Shown: in pieces, positions 6,167 to 11,372 of the stretch | Layout of the letters: every line of letters begins with the position of its first letter | How positions within the stretch are numbered: the first letter of the stretch is position 1 | Source of the DNA: a virus | Lineage: Duplodnaviria; Heunggongvirae; Uroviricota; Caudoviricetes | Strand: one strand, 5' to 3' | Length of the DNA: 11,372 nucleotides | IMG/VR virus record: IMGVR_UViG_2778261165_000014 | Span: 1-11,372 of that record | Notes under the pieces: generated by a model | Database searches by the model: none | Told to the model about the DNA's origin: nothing | What the model saw: the letters and a program-made list of their open reading frames with translations, nothing else | Made by a program: the position numbers and the translations under genes

Positions 6167-7027
6167 TTAAAATGGTTGTAAGCCTTTCAGCCCTGCGGCA
6201 TCCTCCAGACTTTTCTTAACGCTTGCAGTTACGGAATAGCAATCTGCAATTCTTCCGCAAAATCTGGTCGCAACCGGAGAGCCAAGCAATCGCAAAGCGG
6301 GTTCCATTTCGTCTCTCCATATTCTGTACATGGCATCAAGATGAATGCACGCCGAGTTCAGGTTATGAACATTCATCCTCCAATCAAAACAACTCATCTC
6401 ATTATGTTTCGACTTGCCGATGAATTCGCCTTCAAGTGGAACTCGAGCTGCAAGTGACAGTGCTTCGGTAAACTGCTCCTCACGGATTTCTTTGTATGAA
6501 CATCCAAAATGAGATTTCAGTGACGACCACATGGTGATCATCGCCTTCGCCTGTTTTTCTTTTGGCAGAGACTGACCGCGACTCATGACAAGTTGTTTAA
6601 TGGCTTCCTGCTGTTCAGTGGTGATTTTACCCGGCAATGCCTTTTTAGCTTTGCGCGGGTTAACCACATGGCCTTTAGTCCAGTACTCGTAGAGCACATC
6701 GTCACACTCTTCCTGATAGTGGATTACATTGTCGCGGATTTCAGGGCGGACTTTGTTAGGGCTGATGGTTTGCAACCAGCCATTCAGTTTACGTAAAGCA
6801 AGGCAAATCATGGTCTGCACGCCGCCAACTGAAGGTATTGCGATTTCCACAATACCTTTAGCAAATCTTTGTTTTAACTTTGTAAACTGTGAAGCCCAAT
6901 CCATACCCATTCCCTCAACGATAGGTTTCATTGGGGTGTACGGTTCGCCGTTGTGATTGACAACATAAAGCTCTGCGCCGTGAAATGGCACGTTGATAGT
7001 AGATACCGCTGTTGCTATACTTTTCAT
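6167..7027 (-). CDS. ant: Antirepressor (Ant-like)
   Basis: 286-aa ORF directly downstream of an Arc-like gene and divergent from an Mnt-like gene, which is the P22 immI arrangement. Size is close to P22 Ant (about 300 aa as I recall). GAGGA lies 9 nt upstream of the ATG at 7027. Confidence 0.75.
   Translation of the reverse strand: MKSIATAVSTINVPFHGAELYVVNHNGEPYTPMKPIVEGMGMDWASQFTKLKQRFAKGIVEIAIPSVGGVQTMICLALRKLNGWLQTISPNKVRPEIRDNVIHYQEECDDVLYEYWTKGHVVNPRKAKKALPGKITTEQQEAIKQLVMSRGQSLPKEKQAKAMITMWSSLKSHFGCSYKEIREEQFTEALSLAARVPLEGEFIGKSKHNEMSCFDWRMNVHNLNSACIHLDAMYRIWRDEMEPALRLLGSPVATRFCGRIADCYSVTASVKKSLEDAAGLKGLQPF
6993..7021 (+). promoter_or_regulatory. Candidate sigma70 promoter for the sar-like antisense RNA (TTGATA-17-TATACT)
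   Basis: -35 TTGATA at 6993-6998, a 17-nt spacer, and -10 TATACT at 7016-7021 on the plus strand, inside the 5' end of ant and pointing toward arc. Confidence 0.5.
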
Positions 7028-7097
7028 GTCAGTTTTTCCTCAATACTTACTGGCGATTTAAGCCCTAGATACTCGCAATATCTGGGGCTTTACTCAT
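7028..7097 (+). ncRNA. sar: Candidate sar-like small antisense RNA (about 70 nt) complementary to the ant ribosome-binding region
   Basis: The predicted start just after the -10 box lies opposite the ant start codon and SD. The plus-strand hairpin agccctagata (7061-7071) / tatctggggct (7079-7089) has an 11-bp stem with one G-U pair and a 7-nt loop, followed by T-rich ttactcattct (7090-7100). Length and position match what I recall of P22 sar (68-69 nt). Confidence 0.5.
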
Positions 7098-7240
7098 TCT
7101 GGACAAACAATCCCGTCCTTAGCTACCGACTCCTTAAGCCTCCTCAACACCTCATTGCTGAATGACCGATCATCCTTTTTCGCTGACTGCTCCAAAGCTT
7201 TTTCGAGCCATTCTGGCATCCTTAACGTTTTTACTTTCAT
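7094..7240 (-). CDS. arc: Arc-like ribbon-helix-helix repressor (48 aa)
   Basis: Not in the ORF track because it is under 60 aa. Manual translation gives MKVKTLRMPEWLEKALEQSAKKDDRSFSNEVLRRLKESVAKDGIVCPE, with AGGAG 5 nt upstream of the ATG at 7240..7238. The LRMPEW and RSFSNEV segments resemble the P22 Arc strand and helix regions as I recall them. Confidence 0.7.
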   Translation of the reverse strand: MKVKTLRMPEWLEKALEQSAKKDDRSFSNEVLRRLKESVAKDGIVCPE

Positions 7241-7253
7241 TTTCGCTCCTTTG

Positions 7254-7270
7254 GTATGCGGTACGCATAC
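7254..7270. promoter_or_regulatory. 17-bp palindromic operator candidate (GTATGCG-gta-CGCATAC) over the predicted start of the arc-ant transcript
   Basis: Perfect 7-bp inverted arms read directly from the sequence. It lies immediately downstream of the predicted -10 of the arc-ant promoter, the geometry expected for an Mnt-type operator. Confidence 0.5.
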
Positions 7271-7299
7271 ATAGTATGTAGGTACGCATTGATAGTCAA
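7271..7299 (-). promoter_or_regulatory. Candidate promoter for arc-ant (Pant-like; TTGACT-17-TACTAT)
   Basis: On the minus strand, -35 TTGACT is the reverse complement of 7294-7299 and -10 TACTAT is the reverse complement of 7271-7276, with a 17-nt spacer. A GGTACGCAT direct repeat (7261-7269 and 7281-7289) and the palindrome ATTGAtagTCAAT (7288-7300) overlap it. Confidence 0.5.
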
Positions 7300-7317
7300 T
7301 AGATACCTACATATCCT
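7289..7317 (+). promoter_or_regulatory. Candidate divergent promoter for the mnt-like gene (TTGATA-17-TATCCT)
   Basis: -35 TTGATA at 7289-7294 overlaps, back to back, the -35 of the arc-ant promoter inside the palindrome. The -10 candidate TATCCT at 7312-7317 is weaker. Confidence 0.3.
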
Positions 7318-7345
7318 GTGGTAAAAAATTATTCAGGATATGCTG

Positions 7346-7588
7346 ATGTCTGAACGCAGGTACAAGAACCCACAAGTTAATCTTCGACTTCCTGTGGAGA
7401 TAAAGGATCGCCTAACCGCGTTAGCTGAGGAGAATGGCAGATCTTTAAATGCAGAAATGGTTGCAGCTCTAAGTGCATGGGCAGGAGAAAATAAACATGT
7501 TCACTCGCTTAGCCTTTCTTCCTTAACCGAAAGATTAATAGCTCTTGAGAGAGAGGTTGCAGCCATTAAGGAAGCAAACATCAAGTAA
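7346..7588 (+). CDS. mnt: Mnt-like ribbon-helix-helix repressor
   Basis: The ORF track starts at 7340; the second ATG at 7346 has AGGA 7 nt upstream. The N-terminus ...PQVNLRLPVEIKDRLTALAEENGRSLNAEMV... shows the Arc/Mnt family pattern, and the C-terminus LTERLIALEREVAAIKEANIK looks like a coiled coil, which Mnt uses to tetramerise. Divergent from arc-ant. Confidence 0.7.
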   Translation: MSERRYKNPQVNLRLPVEIKDRLTALAEENGRSLNAEMVAALSAWAGENKHVHSLSLSSLTERLIALEREVAAIKEANIK

Positions 7589-7611
7589 GAAGACGATATT
7601 ACGAGGTTGCT

Positions 7612-8079
7612 ATGGCATGTCTTAGCAAGGAAGAAAATGAAATCATCAATGTAGAATTTAAAAAAACATCAGCAGATGAGTTGTTGATAATCAAGAAATT
7701 AATTATCGATGTTAAGAACCATAAAGGGCTATACCAAGATGTCGTAAAGCATGGTCAAAACCTGTACAACTCAAAGAATAACATCATTCAAGAAACCGGA
7801 CTTAGCGAAAAGATATCTGGTCGTCTTGCTATGATCCTTTGGTCTATCACTAATCCTGAGGTTGAGGCGGCACGCCGATTAAAGATTAAGATCACTGAGG
7901 CAACGTGGGTGTTTGAGGATTTCCTATGTAAACATCCCAGTCACCGCAATCTCAATGGCAAAAAGTACTCTATTCGTAAAGGAATCAGGATCGGTTTTTT
8001 CAAGCACATCCACCCAGGACAACTTGTAGGGTGTGGATGTTTATCTAGACCCATAATTCCAGGGTTAAAAAACTCTTGA
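7612..8079 (+). CDS. Hypothetical protein (155 aa), unrecognised, in an AT-rich cargo island
   Basis: ATG at 7612, 23 nt after the mnt-like stop, with an SD-like acgagg upstream. Hand count of a 100-nt sample (7612-7711) gives about 29% GC, against about 49% for a sample in the baseplate J gene (2401-2500). The C-terminal region has a Cys/His cluster (C106, H108, H111, H132, H134, C141, C143). Confidence 0.55.
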   Translation: MACLSKEENEIINVEFKKTSADELLIIKKLIIDVKNHKGLYQDVVKHGQNLYNSKNNIIQETGLSEKISGRLAMILWSITNPEVEAARRLKIKITEATWVFEDFLCKHPSHRNLNGKKYSIRKGIRIGFFKHIHPGQLVGCGCLSRPIIPGLKNS

Positions 8080-8088
8080 TAGTAGTAA

Positions 8089-8328
8089 TTAATTTCCATC
8101 AAGGGCAGCAAGCAGCGAAGTGCGCAACTCTTCTTGAGTCATTTTCAACTCTCCGCTCTTTGCTTGCCGGCGAAGATCATCGACCACCATTTTGGTGAAT
8201 TCTGTAGGGGTAATCTCACTCTCGATAGAGACCTCTCTCCCGAGAAGCAATGATATCCCACCCCAAATTAGGCTAAAGGCATTACCAATATTTTTTAACG
8301 ATGGAGTGTAAACGATGGAAAGTTTCAT
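8089..8328 (-). CDS. Possible small protein (up to 79 aa, or about 53 aa from TTG at 8250), antisense to the start of the 116-aa plus-strand ORF; uncertain
   Basis: This is the C-terminal part of the 161-aa minus-strand ORF in the track. It has a hydrophobic stretch (IGNAFSLIWGGISLLLG) followed by a charged tail (...EFTKMVVDDLRRQAKSGELKMTQEELRTSLLAALDGN). The plus strand has no ORF of 60 aa or more across 8080-8314. SDs are weak. Confidence 0.25.
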   Translation of the reverse strand: MKLSIVYTPSLKNIGNAFSLIWGGISLLLGREVSIESEITPTEFTKMVVDDLRRQAKSGELKMTQEELRTSLLAALDGN

Positions 8329-8665
8329 TTTTACCGTCCGACAAGAAGATGTTGAATCATTAAACGAAGCAATGCAAACATGGGGGCTAGAACATAAGCC
8401 ACATGTAACACTAGCATTCGACAGCTCGTCTCCACCAGAGTGGGTGCAAGTAATTGTTAACGGAATAACAAGCCCTGCGGCAATGAATTGTTTATCTGCT
8501 GCAATTGGATATTTCGTCGCCAGAAACAAGGGGAAAAAGCTAGAGATACAAACTAACGACGGGAAAAGATTCATCGCTGAAGGGTTTAATCATCGTGAAA
8601 TAAGCGCCTTACTGAGCGAATGTCAAGATCATATCGTTGTCAATAATGATGACAAGCCCACCTGA
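8315..8665 (+). CDS. Hypothetical protein (116 aa), unrecognised
   Basis: ATG at 8315 with GGAG 8 nt upstream (8303-8306). Same orientation as the mnt-like gene and the neighbouring cargo ORFs. The sequence looks like a soluble protein; no motif recognised. Confidence 0.5.
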   Translation: MESFIFTVRQEDVESLNEAMQTWGLEHKPHVTLAFDSSSPPEWVQVIVNGITSPAAMNCLSAAIGYFVARNKGKKLEIQTNDGKRFIAEGFNHREISALLSECQDHIVVNNDDKPT

Positions 8666-8729
8666 GTAGGCATTGCGTGTTTTTTCTTCATTTAATGGGC
8701 AATTGAAATAACCAATACGGATCTCTAAA

Positions 8730-9131
8730 ATGAACATCTTAAAATCTACCATCTCAATCCTCTTTCTGCTAAGCCCTTCCGTGTGCTTCTCGTCTGGCGG
8801 CCTTACTTCACATCAAGTTTTAGTGGATTGCAACAGAGCTTCATCGTCCTTGGTTAGCTCCTATGAAAAGAACGTTCCATTGCAGGAGTCCAAAAGGATG
8901 GACCTCATACAGACAATATCCCGCGTATGCCAAGGTGCATACCAAAACGCTTACGATGGCATGCAGTATGAGGACATTGAAAGAGAGGTTTTATCAAGCG
9001 CCAAAAAACAAAAGAAAAATCTTCAAGGAGAAAGCAAAAAAAATACCGAGAACAGAACCGGACTAGTTCTTTCCGCCATTCAGGTAGGGTATTACATATA
9101 CCATAATGGCGGTCTTGATAATAAAAAATAA
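8730..9131 (+). CDS. Hypothetical secreted or membrane-associated protein (133 aa) with N-terminal signal peptide
   Basis: The N-terminus MNILKSTISILFLLSPSVCFSSGG has a basic n-region and hydrophobic core typical of a Sec signal. The C-terminal part is Lys-rich and contains a second hydrophobic stretch (GLVLSAIQVGYYIY). Its 3' end converges on the tape-measure gene with a 20-nt gap. Confidence 0.6.
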   Translation: MNILKSTISILFLLSPSVCFSSGGLTSHQVLVDCNRASSSLVSSYEKNVPLQESKRMDLIQTISRVCQGAYQNAYDGMQYEDIEREVLSSAKKQKKNLQGESKKNTENRTGLVLSAIQVGYYIYHNGGLDNKK

Positions 9132-9151: not shown

Positions 9152-10969
9152 TTAAGGTGTTACACCACTAGAAAATGCCGCGTTTGTTGACACCCGGCTA
9201 ACTTGCTGATTGACACTTCTGGTAAGAGCATCAACTGTTGTCGGGTTACTGTTAACAACAACCGTGCCAATAGTTGTACTGCTGCTACGACTGTTGTCAA
9301 TTTTTGATGTTGTCTGGCTTGGTGTTGAAGCGATGCGTTGCTGCTGCTGATAGTAAGCCAGCGTCTCGTTTTCTTTTGCATTAAGAGCTGCGCGAATCTT
9401 TGGTACATATTCTCGCGTTTCTTTCGGCAGGGTGTTCCAGTATTTGGATGATGGTGAATCAAACCCGGTACTGGATATGTATTTTAACTTTTTGTCTACA
9501 TTGCCCATCCCCCAGTTGTAAGCCATCAGCGCATGGTTAACATTGCCTTTATAGTGCTTTAGCAAATCCCTCATGAACCTTTCAGCAGCAGCGCGAGATT
9601 TCACTTCATCAAGACGCTCATCAATCCCATCCCCGACCTTTAACCCGTACGCTATGGCAGTATCCTTCATGAGCTGATACGGACCAACAGCACCTTTCGG
9701 GCTGTAAAGTTTTTTACCACCACTCGATTCCACCTCACGAATGGCATCAAGAAGAGAATCCATGCTTACAGGCTTTACTCCGTCAGGGAGAGGGATATCT
9801 GGCTGAATGTTATTGCCATAAATCTCATCTCCCCTACGCCCAAAATCGGTGTCAAACCCCATGCTGCGCATGGTATCTCCAAGTTCACGCTTAGAGTAAT
9901 CAAACGATCCTTTAGCTGCACCCTCAATGTTTTCCCTGTCATTGTAGAGGTACAAACCATATGCTATTAACCCAGCCAACCATGGAGGAAGGGCACCGCC
10001 TGTAAGTTTGCTTCCTACATATGCTGCTGCCAATAGTTTCAGAGCCTCTTCCGCACCACCAACTGCCTTTGTGAATTGCTTCGTCATATTCCCGGCGTCA
10101 TTGAAAAAGCCAATGATGTCGCCATGATGTTTCTCAATCCAGGAACCAAAAGCCTTCATCCCGTCAATAACGTCTGGAGCGAATGCCATGGCTAAATTTT
10201 GCTTTAATCGGGAAAACTCTGAATCAAGTTGCCCAAGAGTGGCAGCAACCTTCTCCTGCTCTTTTACCTGCTGTGCGGTAATACGGGATTTCTTTGTTTC
10301 TGAATCGACAAGCTGCTTAAGTTCCCCTGATTTTATTTTAGCGGCATCTGTCGGATCGAACCCTGATGCAGCCATCACCTGCATCAGGTTTTCTTGAGAA
10401 TGAGTCTTGCCATAGCGAGAAAACTCAGCAAGAGCCTTGTTTGGGTCGCCGAGCTTATTGATATCTAATCCGGTACGAGCTCCAAGAATCAGCAAATTTT
10501 GGGCAGCGCCAGTAAGCCCTCCCATAACAGTCGGATCGGCAATATTTGCCAAAGCCATTCTGGCATTCCCAGAAGATGAAATGAACGAGTCACCGTTAAG
10601 ACCAGCCTGGCGAAATCCCCGCTGAACACCAAACATCTTATTAACATCAGAGCCGAAAAACTTGGCCTGTTGGCTGGCCCTCACAATTTCGTTGGCAGTA
10701 GATGTAAAAAGTTGCTTGATTCCATACAACCCTGCGCCAATTCCCAAAAATCCAGCGGCTGCTGTTGTCACGTTGCGGAAAGCTGAAACAGCGGTTTTAC
10801 CGAACCTCTCCATTTCCTTCCGCCGTTTTTCAAGTTCCTTTAGCCTTTCCTTCTCAGCCCTGGAAAGATCTTTGTTTAATTTACTAACTTCATCTTTTAC
10901 TTTCCGTTTTCCATTCAGGAATTCATCGGCCTTAATTGTGACCTTGTAGGCCAACTCATTGATAATCAT
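9152..10969 (-). CDS. Tape-measure-like protein with C-terminal SLT lytic transglycosylase domain
   Basis: 605-aa ORF. The N-terminus has a charged coiled-coil-like stretch (KRKVKDEVSKLNKDLSRAEKERLKELEKRRKEMERF) and Gly-rich hydrophobic segments. Around aa 400-515 (nt 9425-9772) it carries family-1 SLT motifs: E-S (E414, codon 9728-9730), GAVGPYQLM, and AYNWG. GGAG lies 5 nt upstream of the ATG at 10969. Confidence 0.7.
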   Translation of the reverse strand: MIINELAYKVTIKADEFLNGKRKVKDEVSKLNKDLSRAEKERLKELEKRRKEMERFGKTAVSAFRNVTTAAAGFLGIGAGLYGIKQLFTSTANEIVRASQQAKFFGSDVNKMFGVQRGFRQAGLNGDSFISSSGNARMALANIADPTVMGGLTGAAQNLLILGARTGLDINKLGDPNKALAEFSRYGKTHSQENLMQVMAASGFDPTDAAKIKSGELKQLVDSETKKSRITAQQVKEQEKVAATLGQLDSEFSRLKQNLAMAFAPDVIDGMKAFGSWIEKHHGDIIGFFNDAGNMTKQFTKAVGGAEEALKLLAAAYVGSKLTGGALPPWLAGLIAYGLYLYNDRENIEGAAKGSFDYSKRELGDTMRSMGFDTDFGRRGDEIYGNNIQPDIPLPDGVKPVSMDSLLDAIREVESSGGKKLYSPKGAVGPYQLMKDTAIAYGLKVGDGIDERLDEVKSRAAAERFMRDLLKHYKGNVNHALMAYNWGMGNVDKKLKYISSTGFDSPSSKYWNTLPKETREYVPKIRAALNAKENETLAYYQQQQRIASTPSQTTSKIDNSRSSSTTIGTVVVNSNPTTVDALTRSVNQQVSRVSTNAAFSSGVTP

Positions 10970-11205
10970 CGCTGCTCCTGATGTTTATTCCAGACCCGCT
11001 TGTTAAATGATTCCACCGAGATAATTTCCAGCAGGTTATACATATCACGAACAGATAACCGTTCCTGCAAATCGGTATAAGTGGCTTTTCCTGAACAGAT
11101 AATGGCGTTCATTGATGGTGTGACGTTTACGGGGCTAACGAGTTTTGCCGGAAGAGTCTCCTCCTCCATGAACGGGTACTTCACTCTCCGGCGATCGTTA
11201 AAAAA
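10966..11205 (-). CDS. -1 frame extension (T-like) of the tail assembly chaperone, predicted to be expressed by programmed frameshifting as a G-T-type fusion
   Basis: This reading frame opens right after a stop at 11206-11208 and runs to 10966, overlapping the tape-measure ATG as ATGA. It has no convincing start or SD of its own (the track's start at 11184 is GTG; the first ATG at 11170 lacks an SD). The slippery heptamer UUUUUUA lies at 11205..11199 on the minus-strand mRNA. Confidence 0.55.
   Translation of the reverse strand, partial: FFNDRRRVKYPFMEEETLPAKLVSPVNVTPSMNAIICSGKATYTDLQERLSVRDMYNLLEIISVESFNKRVWNKHQEQR
11147..11205 (-). other. Programmed -1 ribosomal frameshift signal: slippery heptamer U UUU UUA plus downstream hairpin
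   Basis: On the mRNA the zero-frame codons are GAU UUU UUA (11207..11199). After a 6-nt spacer (ACGAUC), GCCGGAGAG (11192..11184) can pair with CUCUUCCGGC (11156..11147), giving a 9-bp GC-rich stem with one bulged U and a 27-nt loop. Confidence 0.5.
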
Positions 11206-11372
11206 TCAAAATTGACTTTAAATACCTTATCCATTACCTGACGAATGGTTGATACCTCTTCAAAGTCGACAGGCTTCACGGTTCGCACCTGTCTGCTGCC
11301 TTCGTGTGTAATCACAATTTGCACAGTTGACATCAGGCGATCACGAAGTTTTCTGGCGACTTCCGGCGATGC
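11181..11372 (-). CDS. Tail assembly chaperone (G-like), 3' portion; 5' end lies outside the window
   Basis: Open frame from the window edge to TGA at 11183..11181, translated manually as ...ASPEVARKLRDRLMSTVQIVITHEGSRQVRTVKPVDFEEVSTIRQVMDKVFKVNFDFLTIAGE. It sits immediately upstream of the tape-measure gene and contains the slippery site near its 3' end. Confidence 0.55.
   Translation of the reverse strand, partial: ASPEVARKLRDRLMSTVQIVITHEGSRQVRTVKPVDFEEVSTIRQVMDKVFKVNFDFLTIAGE

Follow-up and report, generated by a model that had tools for sequence, protein, structure and literature searches.

The tail assembly chaperone (TAC) gene that precedes the tape-measure gene in this viral sequence very probably undergoes a programmed −1 frameshift of the G/GT type at a U_UUU_UUA slippery heptamer. 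We infer the slippage from sequence anatomy, family assignment, gene order and conservation at the nucleotide and protein levels, all of which were observed directly. G/GT-type frameshifting is conserved in long-tailed dsDNA phages (PMC5009743), and the locus showed four features of that class, namely its position, a −1 overlap without a conserved start of its own, a conserved slippery site and a TAC family upstream. The chaperone frameshift proposed in the preliminary description of this DNA is supported by gene order, by family assignment (PHROG 1932) between tube and tape-measure genes, and by strong comparative evidence, comprising synonymous-site constraint, a conserved −1 peptide and a relative in which the two frames appear fused.

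Organization of the locus

The window, i.e. the whole stretch of DNA analysed, is 11,372 nt long, and all features of the frameshift locus lie on its minus strand:

11181..11372, minus strand: partial TAC gene, zero frame, from translation; interrupted by the window edge
11205-11199, minus strand: slippery heptamer U_UUU_UUA, in X_XXY_YYZ register with the zero-frame codons GAU-UUU-UUA
11193..11198, minus strand: 6-nt spacer ACGAUC between heptamer and hairpin, from sequence and alignment
11147..11192, minus strand: candidate stimulatory hairpin with a 9-bp G+C-rich stem, one bulged U and a 27-nt loop
10966..11205, minus strand: −1 frame extension ("T-like" domain), 79 codons including the two heptamer codons
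9152..10969, minus strand: tape-measure/lytic tail protein gene, 605 aa, with a C-terminal SLT transglycosylase domain

The last 63 codons of the TAC gene are in the window (…VMDKVFKVNFDFLTIAGE, stop TGA 11183-11181), and the zero frame near the stop reads AAT TTT GAT (11207-05) TTT (11204-02) TTA (11201-11199) ACG ATC GCC GGA GAG TGA (11183-81). The −1 frame is closed by a TGA at 11208-11206, then open from 11205 to the TGA at 10968-10966 (FFNDRRRVKYPFMEEETLPAKL…HQEQR), so that the heptamer sits exactly where this frame opens, as had been claimed. The stop of the −1 ORF overlaps the tape-measure ATG (10969-10967) as ATGA (10969-10966), which agrees with the earlier statement that the −1 frame ends at the tape-measure start; an AGGAG lies 5 nt 5' of that ATG. 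The hairpin arms are GCCGGAGAG on the 5' side (11192-11184) and CTC-T-TCCGGC on the 3' side (11156-11147), and the loop includes the zero-frame stop of the TAC gene and the Shine-Dalgarno-like GGAGGAGGAG. On re-reading the sequence, all coordinates given in the preliminary description for the heptamer, frames, stem and stops were correct.

Gene identities and genomic neighbourhood

The upstream ORF was assigned over its full length to PHROG 1932, "tail assembly chaperone" (E = 1.1e-51). The −1 ORF belonged to a PHROG of its own (3976, function unknown; E = 1.5e-15), and the conceptual fusion matched PHROGs 18181 and 4774 across the junction. Sequence-profile searches of Pfam, NCBIfam and PDB with the chaperone and T domain returned only Pfam PF21822 (Phage_TAC_15) for the TAC, at 20.2 bits and hence under the 22-bit cut-off. 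NCBIfam had no model for either the TAC or the T domain, which accounts for the "hypothetical" labels in the records. The 605-aa protein contained a Pfam SLT domain (E = 3.8e-20) and matched PHROG 2013, "lytic tail protein" (E = 2e-191), while its N-terminal 350 residues also matched the tape-measure PHROGs 9570 and 2276.

At >=99% identity, this DNA recurred in 20 of 5426 complete E. coli genomes, each time in a chromosomal prophage. In relatives the full-length TAC gene has 135 codons, as in the E. coli STEC299 copy (L001:8785-9192), where a neck terminator, a DUF3383 sheath, a 144-aa tube protein of the E217_Gp32 family and the 135-aa TAC are followed by a 67-aa "hypothetical protein", an SLT-domain protein and then baseplate genes. 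The order sheath, tube, TAC, −1 ORF and SLT-containing tape measure was found in this E. coli locus, in a metagenome contig (L002) and in phage Edno5; the window carries its last three members (TAC, −1 ORF and tape measure). The nearest cultured phages were the Edwardsiella phages Edno5 and GF-2 (Gofduovirus, 64-65% identity) and Vibrio phage IKEMa6-1. The records of the cultured relatives list the chaperone and, separately, a small hypothetical protein, and RefSeq and GenBank records of relatives give two hypothetical proteins; slippage is annotated in neither.

Conservation of the slippery heptamer

With 9 copies of TTTTTTA in the window for 3.85 expected, the heptamer alone is not rare there, and a 79-codon open frame has a chance probability of ~0.02, i.e. 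(61/64)^79. Heptamer, open frame and hairpin are each within the reach of chance; the case rests on the relatives, where both the heptamer and the −1 ORF are conserved beyond chance expectation. A total of 95 related loci were compared (15 from GTDB genomes and 80 from IMG/VR), with TAC identities of 53-100%.

With three exceptions, namely TTTTTTG (L073), ATTTTTA (L034) and an in-frame T9 fusion (L002), the 95 loci had the heptamer at an unchanged position and in an unchanged frame; three other loci, overlooked by the first motif filter, carry TTTTTTA too. Among 80 distinct TAC-T regions, 78 had TTTTTTA in the same frame and one more had TTTTTTG, and the distance from the heptamer to the zero-frame stop was 15 nt in 79.

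Constraint at synonymous sites was confined to the heptamer, and neighbouring codons varied freely. In the 77 distinct sequences, the slip-site Phe codon was TTT in every case (TTT:TTC 77:0), compared with 43:34, 42:32 and 32:45 for three other nearby invariant Phe codons. The slip-site Leu was encoded by TTA in 76 sequences and by TTG in one, whereas another Leu column was mostly CTG; the Asp codon before the slip site was GAT at 57:0, against 32:45 and 55:22 in other Asp columns. These sequences are related and not independent samples, and the counts overstate the number of evolutionary events; still, the contrast between the heptamer and its flanking codons on the same tree is unambiguous.

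The −1 reading frame and its possible starts

Across 80 distinct relatives, the extension was 75-79 aa long and in the −1 register in all 80, usually with a stop that overlaps the start of the next gene, the tape measure, as ATGA or GTGA. The −1 peptide was conserved from codon 5 (RRRVKYPF), i.e. 5' of the ATG chosen by annotators. In −1-frame codons 9-12, between the zero-frame stop and this ATG, column entropy was 0.21, 0.50 and 1.09 bits at the three codon positions, a coding signature in a stretch that gene models treat as intergenic.

Two possible starts exist in the window: GTG 11184-11182, which forms GTGA with the zero-frame stop, and ATG 11169-11167, five codons later, which is the start used by PGAP in a relative's record. 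Either might allow some independent initiation, and the −1 ORF could accordingly be a separate small gene beside which the heptamer is incidental, translated by termination-reinitiation at the GTGA (GTG 11184-82/TGA 11183-81) or from ATG 11169-67. GTGA overlaps are a common coupling arrangement, and PGAP and other callers annotate a 67-72-aa hypothetical protein here. Several lines of evidence nevertheless make a separate gene unlikely. The spacing from GGAG is 1 nt for the GTG and 16 nt for the ATG, unusable as a Shine-Dalgarno distance in both cases. Of 74 distinct sequences, 29 had the ATG and only 16 the GTG, most relatives lacking the latter because their chaperone stop is TAA, giving GTA; 25 of the 74 had no ATG, GTG or TTG within codons 3-30. 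Gene callers placed the start of the −1 ORF at no fewer than five different positions (at least 5; lengths of 48, 58, 65-67 and 71-73 aa). Furthermore, conservation with −1-frame periodicity extends to RRRV and KYPF, upstream of the two starts, constraint on the heptamer at synonymous sites would serve no purpose in an independent gene, and one relative has the two frames as a single ORF (see next section). The earlier statement that the −1 frame has no credible start thus probably holds in the sense of non-conserved starts with poor Shine-Dalgarno spacing, and not in the sense of absent start codons.

A fused relative and the nature of the probable slippage

In a metagenomic relative, P0028 (L002:4001-4633), the predicted fusion occurs as a single 210-aa ORF. 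It aligned end-to-end with the predicted fusion of the window at 52% identity and 100% coverage, with FKLNFSFFFNRRRVEYPF aligned with FKVNFDFLNDRRRVKYPF at the junction. Its DNA has a T9 run at the slip site, which could reflect true variation or an assembly error in the homopolymer; whichever its origin, the two reading frames form one collinear protein according to this alignment. The AlphaFold2 model of P0028 was of low confidence (mean pLDDT 60.4), and a Foldseek search of the PDB with it gave nothing at E <= 0.001; the HK97 chaperone 2ob9 ranked 14th with a TM score of 0.46 on the target and a probability of 0.2, for a model of pLDDT ~60.

As a separate observation on distant relatives, the T-like domain of Klebsiella ST15-VIM1phi2.1 is also in the −1 frame, with only GCU_UUU_GUA at the equivalent position, which is suggestive.

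A long product with the junction ...NFDFF-NDRRRV could also arise by transcriptional slippage, with RNA polymerase inserting an extra U within the U6 run so that part of the mRNAs would carry the T frame. The slip site is homopolymeric (T6), and T9-length runs are known to slip during transcription, so the T9 variant with fused frames in one metagenomic relative keeps this very unlikely mechanism from being negligible. Six U, however, is shorter than the runs that give appreciable slippage of bacterial RNA polymerase. The run was never longer in the 94 other loci and its register to the zero frame was fixed, while the seventh base was A in 76 of 77 sequences (TTA, not TTG), a pattern that tandem re-pairing of tRNAs fits better. 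Transcriptional slippage is reviewed in PMC5009743.

That heptamer, −1 frame and hairpin coincide by chance in a non-functional, non-coding region is scarcely credible, for all the frequency of TTTTTTA in the window, the probability of the open frame given above and the unremarkable z of the hairpin, and is contradicted by the comparative data, in which the length, protein sequence and third-position wobble of the −1 ORF are kept down to 53% TAC identity, the ORF has its own PHROG family and the heptamer is invariant at synonymous sites.

The downstream hairpin

The 9-bp stem described earlier at 6 nt downstream of the heptamer is present, with one bulged U, but its stability is only modest. 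In frameshift signals of the HIV-1 gag-pol or dnaX type, a stable structure backed by conservation and covariation is expected 5-9 nt from the heptamer. Over 69 nt the fold was -19.3 kcal/mol compared to -18.3 ± 3.0 for shuffles (z = -0.34), and over a tighter 58-nt stretch z was -1.59; the window hairpin is therefore not clearly more stable than shuffled sequence. The stem was found in 34 of 54 distinct junctions, an enterobacterial subclade that includes the window and in which it is on average more stable than shuffles (mean z = -2.4), whereas the other junctions, mostly more distant, kept the heptamer with no comparable structure (mean z = -0.75). RNAalifold predicted no structure on all 54 distinct junctions, and family-wide covariation at the stem was no better than in slid controls.

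Within the subclade, 92% of cells were paired, and compensatory changes were seen at three pairs (11 cells; slid controls, 0-1), for a set that was itself selected for pairing. In one such pair, AGA→AGG accompanies ACU→ACC, and neither change alters the T-frame peptide. With a subset picked for its pairing and coding sequence in both arms, this covariation is suggestive only.

The preliminary description went further and considered the stimulatory element to be pinpointed. As a firm claim this was given up, in view of the shuffle z, RNAalifold and family-wide covariation, none of which was supportive: stability is weak, the stem is missing from distant relatives and covariation is confined to the subclade. 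That the hairpin stimulates frameshifting is possible but somewhat doubtful. Tentatively, it might be a clade-specific stimulator added to an ancestral slippery site that works without structure, with the enterobacterial subclade carrying a stimulator and the deeper branches none. If true, the family would offer natural pairs with and without the hairpin for studying how the long:short chaperone ratio is tuned. From its distribution in the sequences, the hairpin is not required across the family, and downstream structures have been described as uncommon at phage chaperone frameshift sites (PMC3091744).

Upstream of the heptamer, no conserved Shine-Dalgarno-like element at stimulatory spacing was found in the aligned relatives. 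The only candidate, AAGG ~21 nt upstream, varies with Lys codon choice in relatives and was rejected as a stimulator.

Predicted products and comparison with known systems

Under the frameshift reading, the 135-aa short chaperone would come from the majority of ribosomes, which stay in the zero frame as far as TGA 11183-11181. In a smaller fraction, a pause would leave the P-site tRNA-Phe paired with UUU (11204-02) and the A-site tRNA-Leu with UUA (11201-11199), from which both would move back by one base, in the 5' direction, to pair with UUU-UUU. Reading would then resume in the −1 frame at AAC (11199-97) and continue for 77 more codons to TGA 10968-66. The predicted long form would share the N-terminal 130 residues and comprise 207 aa (130 + 77 residues after the slip), with the junction ...NFDF(L/F)-NDRRRVKYPF.... 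Since tandem slippage leaves tRNA-Leu at the junction, the main form would be ...NFDFL-NDRRRV, and a minor FF-ND product would result if the P-site tRNA slipped alone. The junction peptide given earlier, NFDFF-NDRRRVKYPF, would thus be the minor form, as at the HIV site; at the HIV-1 site, 70-80% of junctions carry Leu and 20-30% Phe (PMC5009743). Shifting at U_UUU_UUA is weak in E. coli, where A_AAA_AAG is far more prone to it (PMC5009743), and a low efficiency would agree with the low long:short ratio required in lambda. In the enterobacterial subclade, the G+C-rich hairpin beginning 6 nt past the heptamer may increase slippage.

If the roles resemble those in lambda gpG/gpGT and P2 gpE/gpE+E', the N-terminal part common to both forms would coat the tape-measure protein and the −1-encoded domain would recruit the tube protein, both chaperone forms being assembly factors missing from the finished virion. 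As in lambda (Levin, Hendrix & Casjens 1993; Xu, Hendrix & Duda 2004, 2013, 2014; summarised in PMC5009743), two overlapping ORFs lie between the major tail and tape-measure genes, and two products with a common N-terminus and a low long:short ratio are expected. In the G/GT class, short and long products occur in a fixed ratio and tail assembly depends on both; for this family, the natural single-ORF fusion in one relative lends this indirect support only. Lambda G and T have no detectable sequence similarity to this TAC and T domain, the lambda site is G_GGA_AAG instead of U_UUU_UUA, and, unlike lambda, the virus here has a contractile tail (DUF3383 sheath, E217_Gp32-type tube) and possibly a subclade hairpin.

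Phage P2, likewise contractile-tailed, temperate and enterobacterial, has a U6-run −1 shift between tube and tape-measure genes (at TTTTTTG; Christie et al. 2002, as described in PMC3091744). The P2 heptamer was also found in one locus of the family studied here (L073); otherwise the seventh base is A, compared to G in P2. The protein families differ, as do the sizes (E 91 aa and E+E' 142 aa, versus 135 and, as predicted, 207 aa here), and P2 and its relatives have no downstream structure (PMC3091744).

The HIV-1 gag-pol site has the identical U_UUU_UUA followed by a G+C-rich stem-loop, and a mixed Leu/Phe junction is likewise expected here. As translation here is bacterial and the genes and origin are unrelated, the analogy is one of mechanism only, and compared with HIV-1 the hairpin here, with its 27-nt loop and bulge, is a candidate stimulator only. 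The gamma/tau site of E. coli dnaX similarly combines a bacterial −1 frameshift, a heptamer, a short spacer and a stem-loop; it differs in its A_AAA_AAG heptamer, far more shift-prone in E. coli, and in its upstream Shine-Dalgarno-like stimulator.

A predicted TAC-N/TAC-NC −1 frameshift has been described for the Pakpunavirus and Andersonviridae myophages in the phage Adele paper (PMC12846349). There too, the downstream ORF is routinely annotated as a separate hypothetical protein, and the argument is alike, resting on a −1 frame that no allele interrupts and on a poly-T motif conserved at the 3' end of TAC-N. Those phages belong to another lineage and have another TAC family, and their motif is GTTTTT, not a canonical X_XXY_YYZ.

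Significance for the prophage family

The locus is very probably an ordinary, so far unannotated example of the well-known −1 frameshift in phage tail assembly chaperones, and the same situation and argument have already been published for the Pakpunavirus myophages (PMC12846349). It leaves current views of tail assembly and of frameshifting as they are. The long chaperone form was missing from every public record examined (20 complete E. coli genomes, the Edwardsiella phages Edno5 and GF-2, and many metagenomic contigs), where the −1 ORF was called as a 48-73-aa hypothetical protein with inconsistent starts. The main value of the finding is one of annotation, as a single correct product of 207 aa, as predicted, would replace an orphan ORF in this prophage family, and the recorded bacterial recoding sites would gain a well-conserved U_UUU_UUA example.

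Annotation of the −1 ORF and of the tape-measure gene

The −1 ORF (minus strand, 11205-10966), the proposed extension of the tail assembly chaperone into its long form, is represented in public protein databases by entries P0121-P0162, which are all labelled 'hypothetical protein' and carry no Pfam domain. Its length depends on the gene caller (48, 58, 65-67 or 71-73 aa), and disagreement of this kind is typical of a missed frameshift. Database names for the protein of the tape-measure gene (9152-10969, minus strand), which has a C-terminal SLT lytic transglycosylase domain at residues 402-498, are 'lytic tail protein', 'endolysin' and 'transglycosylase', and not tape measure.

A cargo block resembling P22 immI occupies 6167-9131, with this gene on one side and the baseplate genes on the other, and contains the following features:

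6167-7027, minus: antirepressor Ant
7340-7588, plus: Arc-like ribbon-helix-helix protein
7612-8079, plus: ORF without database match
8089-8574, minus: ORF without database match, overlapping 8315-8665
8315-8665, plus: ORF without database match, overlapping 8089-8574
8730-9131, plus: ORF without database match, with a signal-peptide-like N-terminus

The four matchless ORFs were searched against Pfam, PHROGs, PADLOC and NCBIfam. Among 5426 complete E. coli genomes, only 4 contained the entire 2.1-kb stretch. The related prophage of E. coli STEC299 possessed other genes at the equivalent position, so the block looks like a variable hotspot within the tail module. At the head-gene end of the STEC299 prophage, beyond the window (L001:1-1022), an IS100 transposase gene adjoins a gene of the anti-CBASS Acb1 family.

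Sequence context and natural variants of the proposed slip site

Inside the loop of the candidate hairpin downstream of the TTTTTTA heptamer, a triple Shine-Dalgarno-like motif, GGAGGAGGAG, was observed at 11157-11166 (minus strand), 33-42 nt downstream of the heptamer. In the T frame (that of the −1 ORF) it reads as Glu-Glu-Glu codons and, as relatives have GAAGAGGA at this site, it probably represents acidic codons only.

A distant relative with about 29% identity, Klebsiella phage ST15-VIM1phi2.1 (L099:2951-3160), likewise encoded the T-like domain (ISGKMATLHELDTVYSVQDMWWLIE…) in the −1 frame of its chaperone gene, and the site equivalent to the heptamer was only a non-canonical GCU_UUU_GUA. 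In a relative on metagenome contig ERZ28575314 scaffold_1438 (L002:4385-4402), a T9 run replaces TTTTTTA, and the chaperone and T domain form one fused 210-aa ORF (P0028). This run reflects either an assembly error in the homopolymer or a variant that makes the long form by default; such a variant could still produce the short form through transcriptional slippage. Two other related loci carried altered heptamers: A_TTT_TTA (L034:1884-1890), in which the position of P-site re-pairing is mismatched, and T_TTT_TTG (L073:1890-1896), a P2-type site. Both would be of use as natural comparators of frameshifting efficiency.
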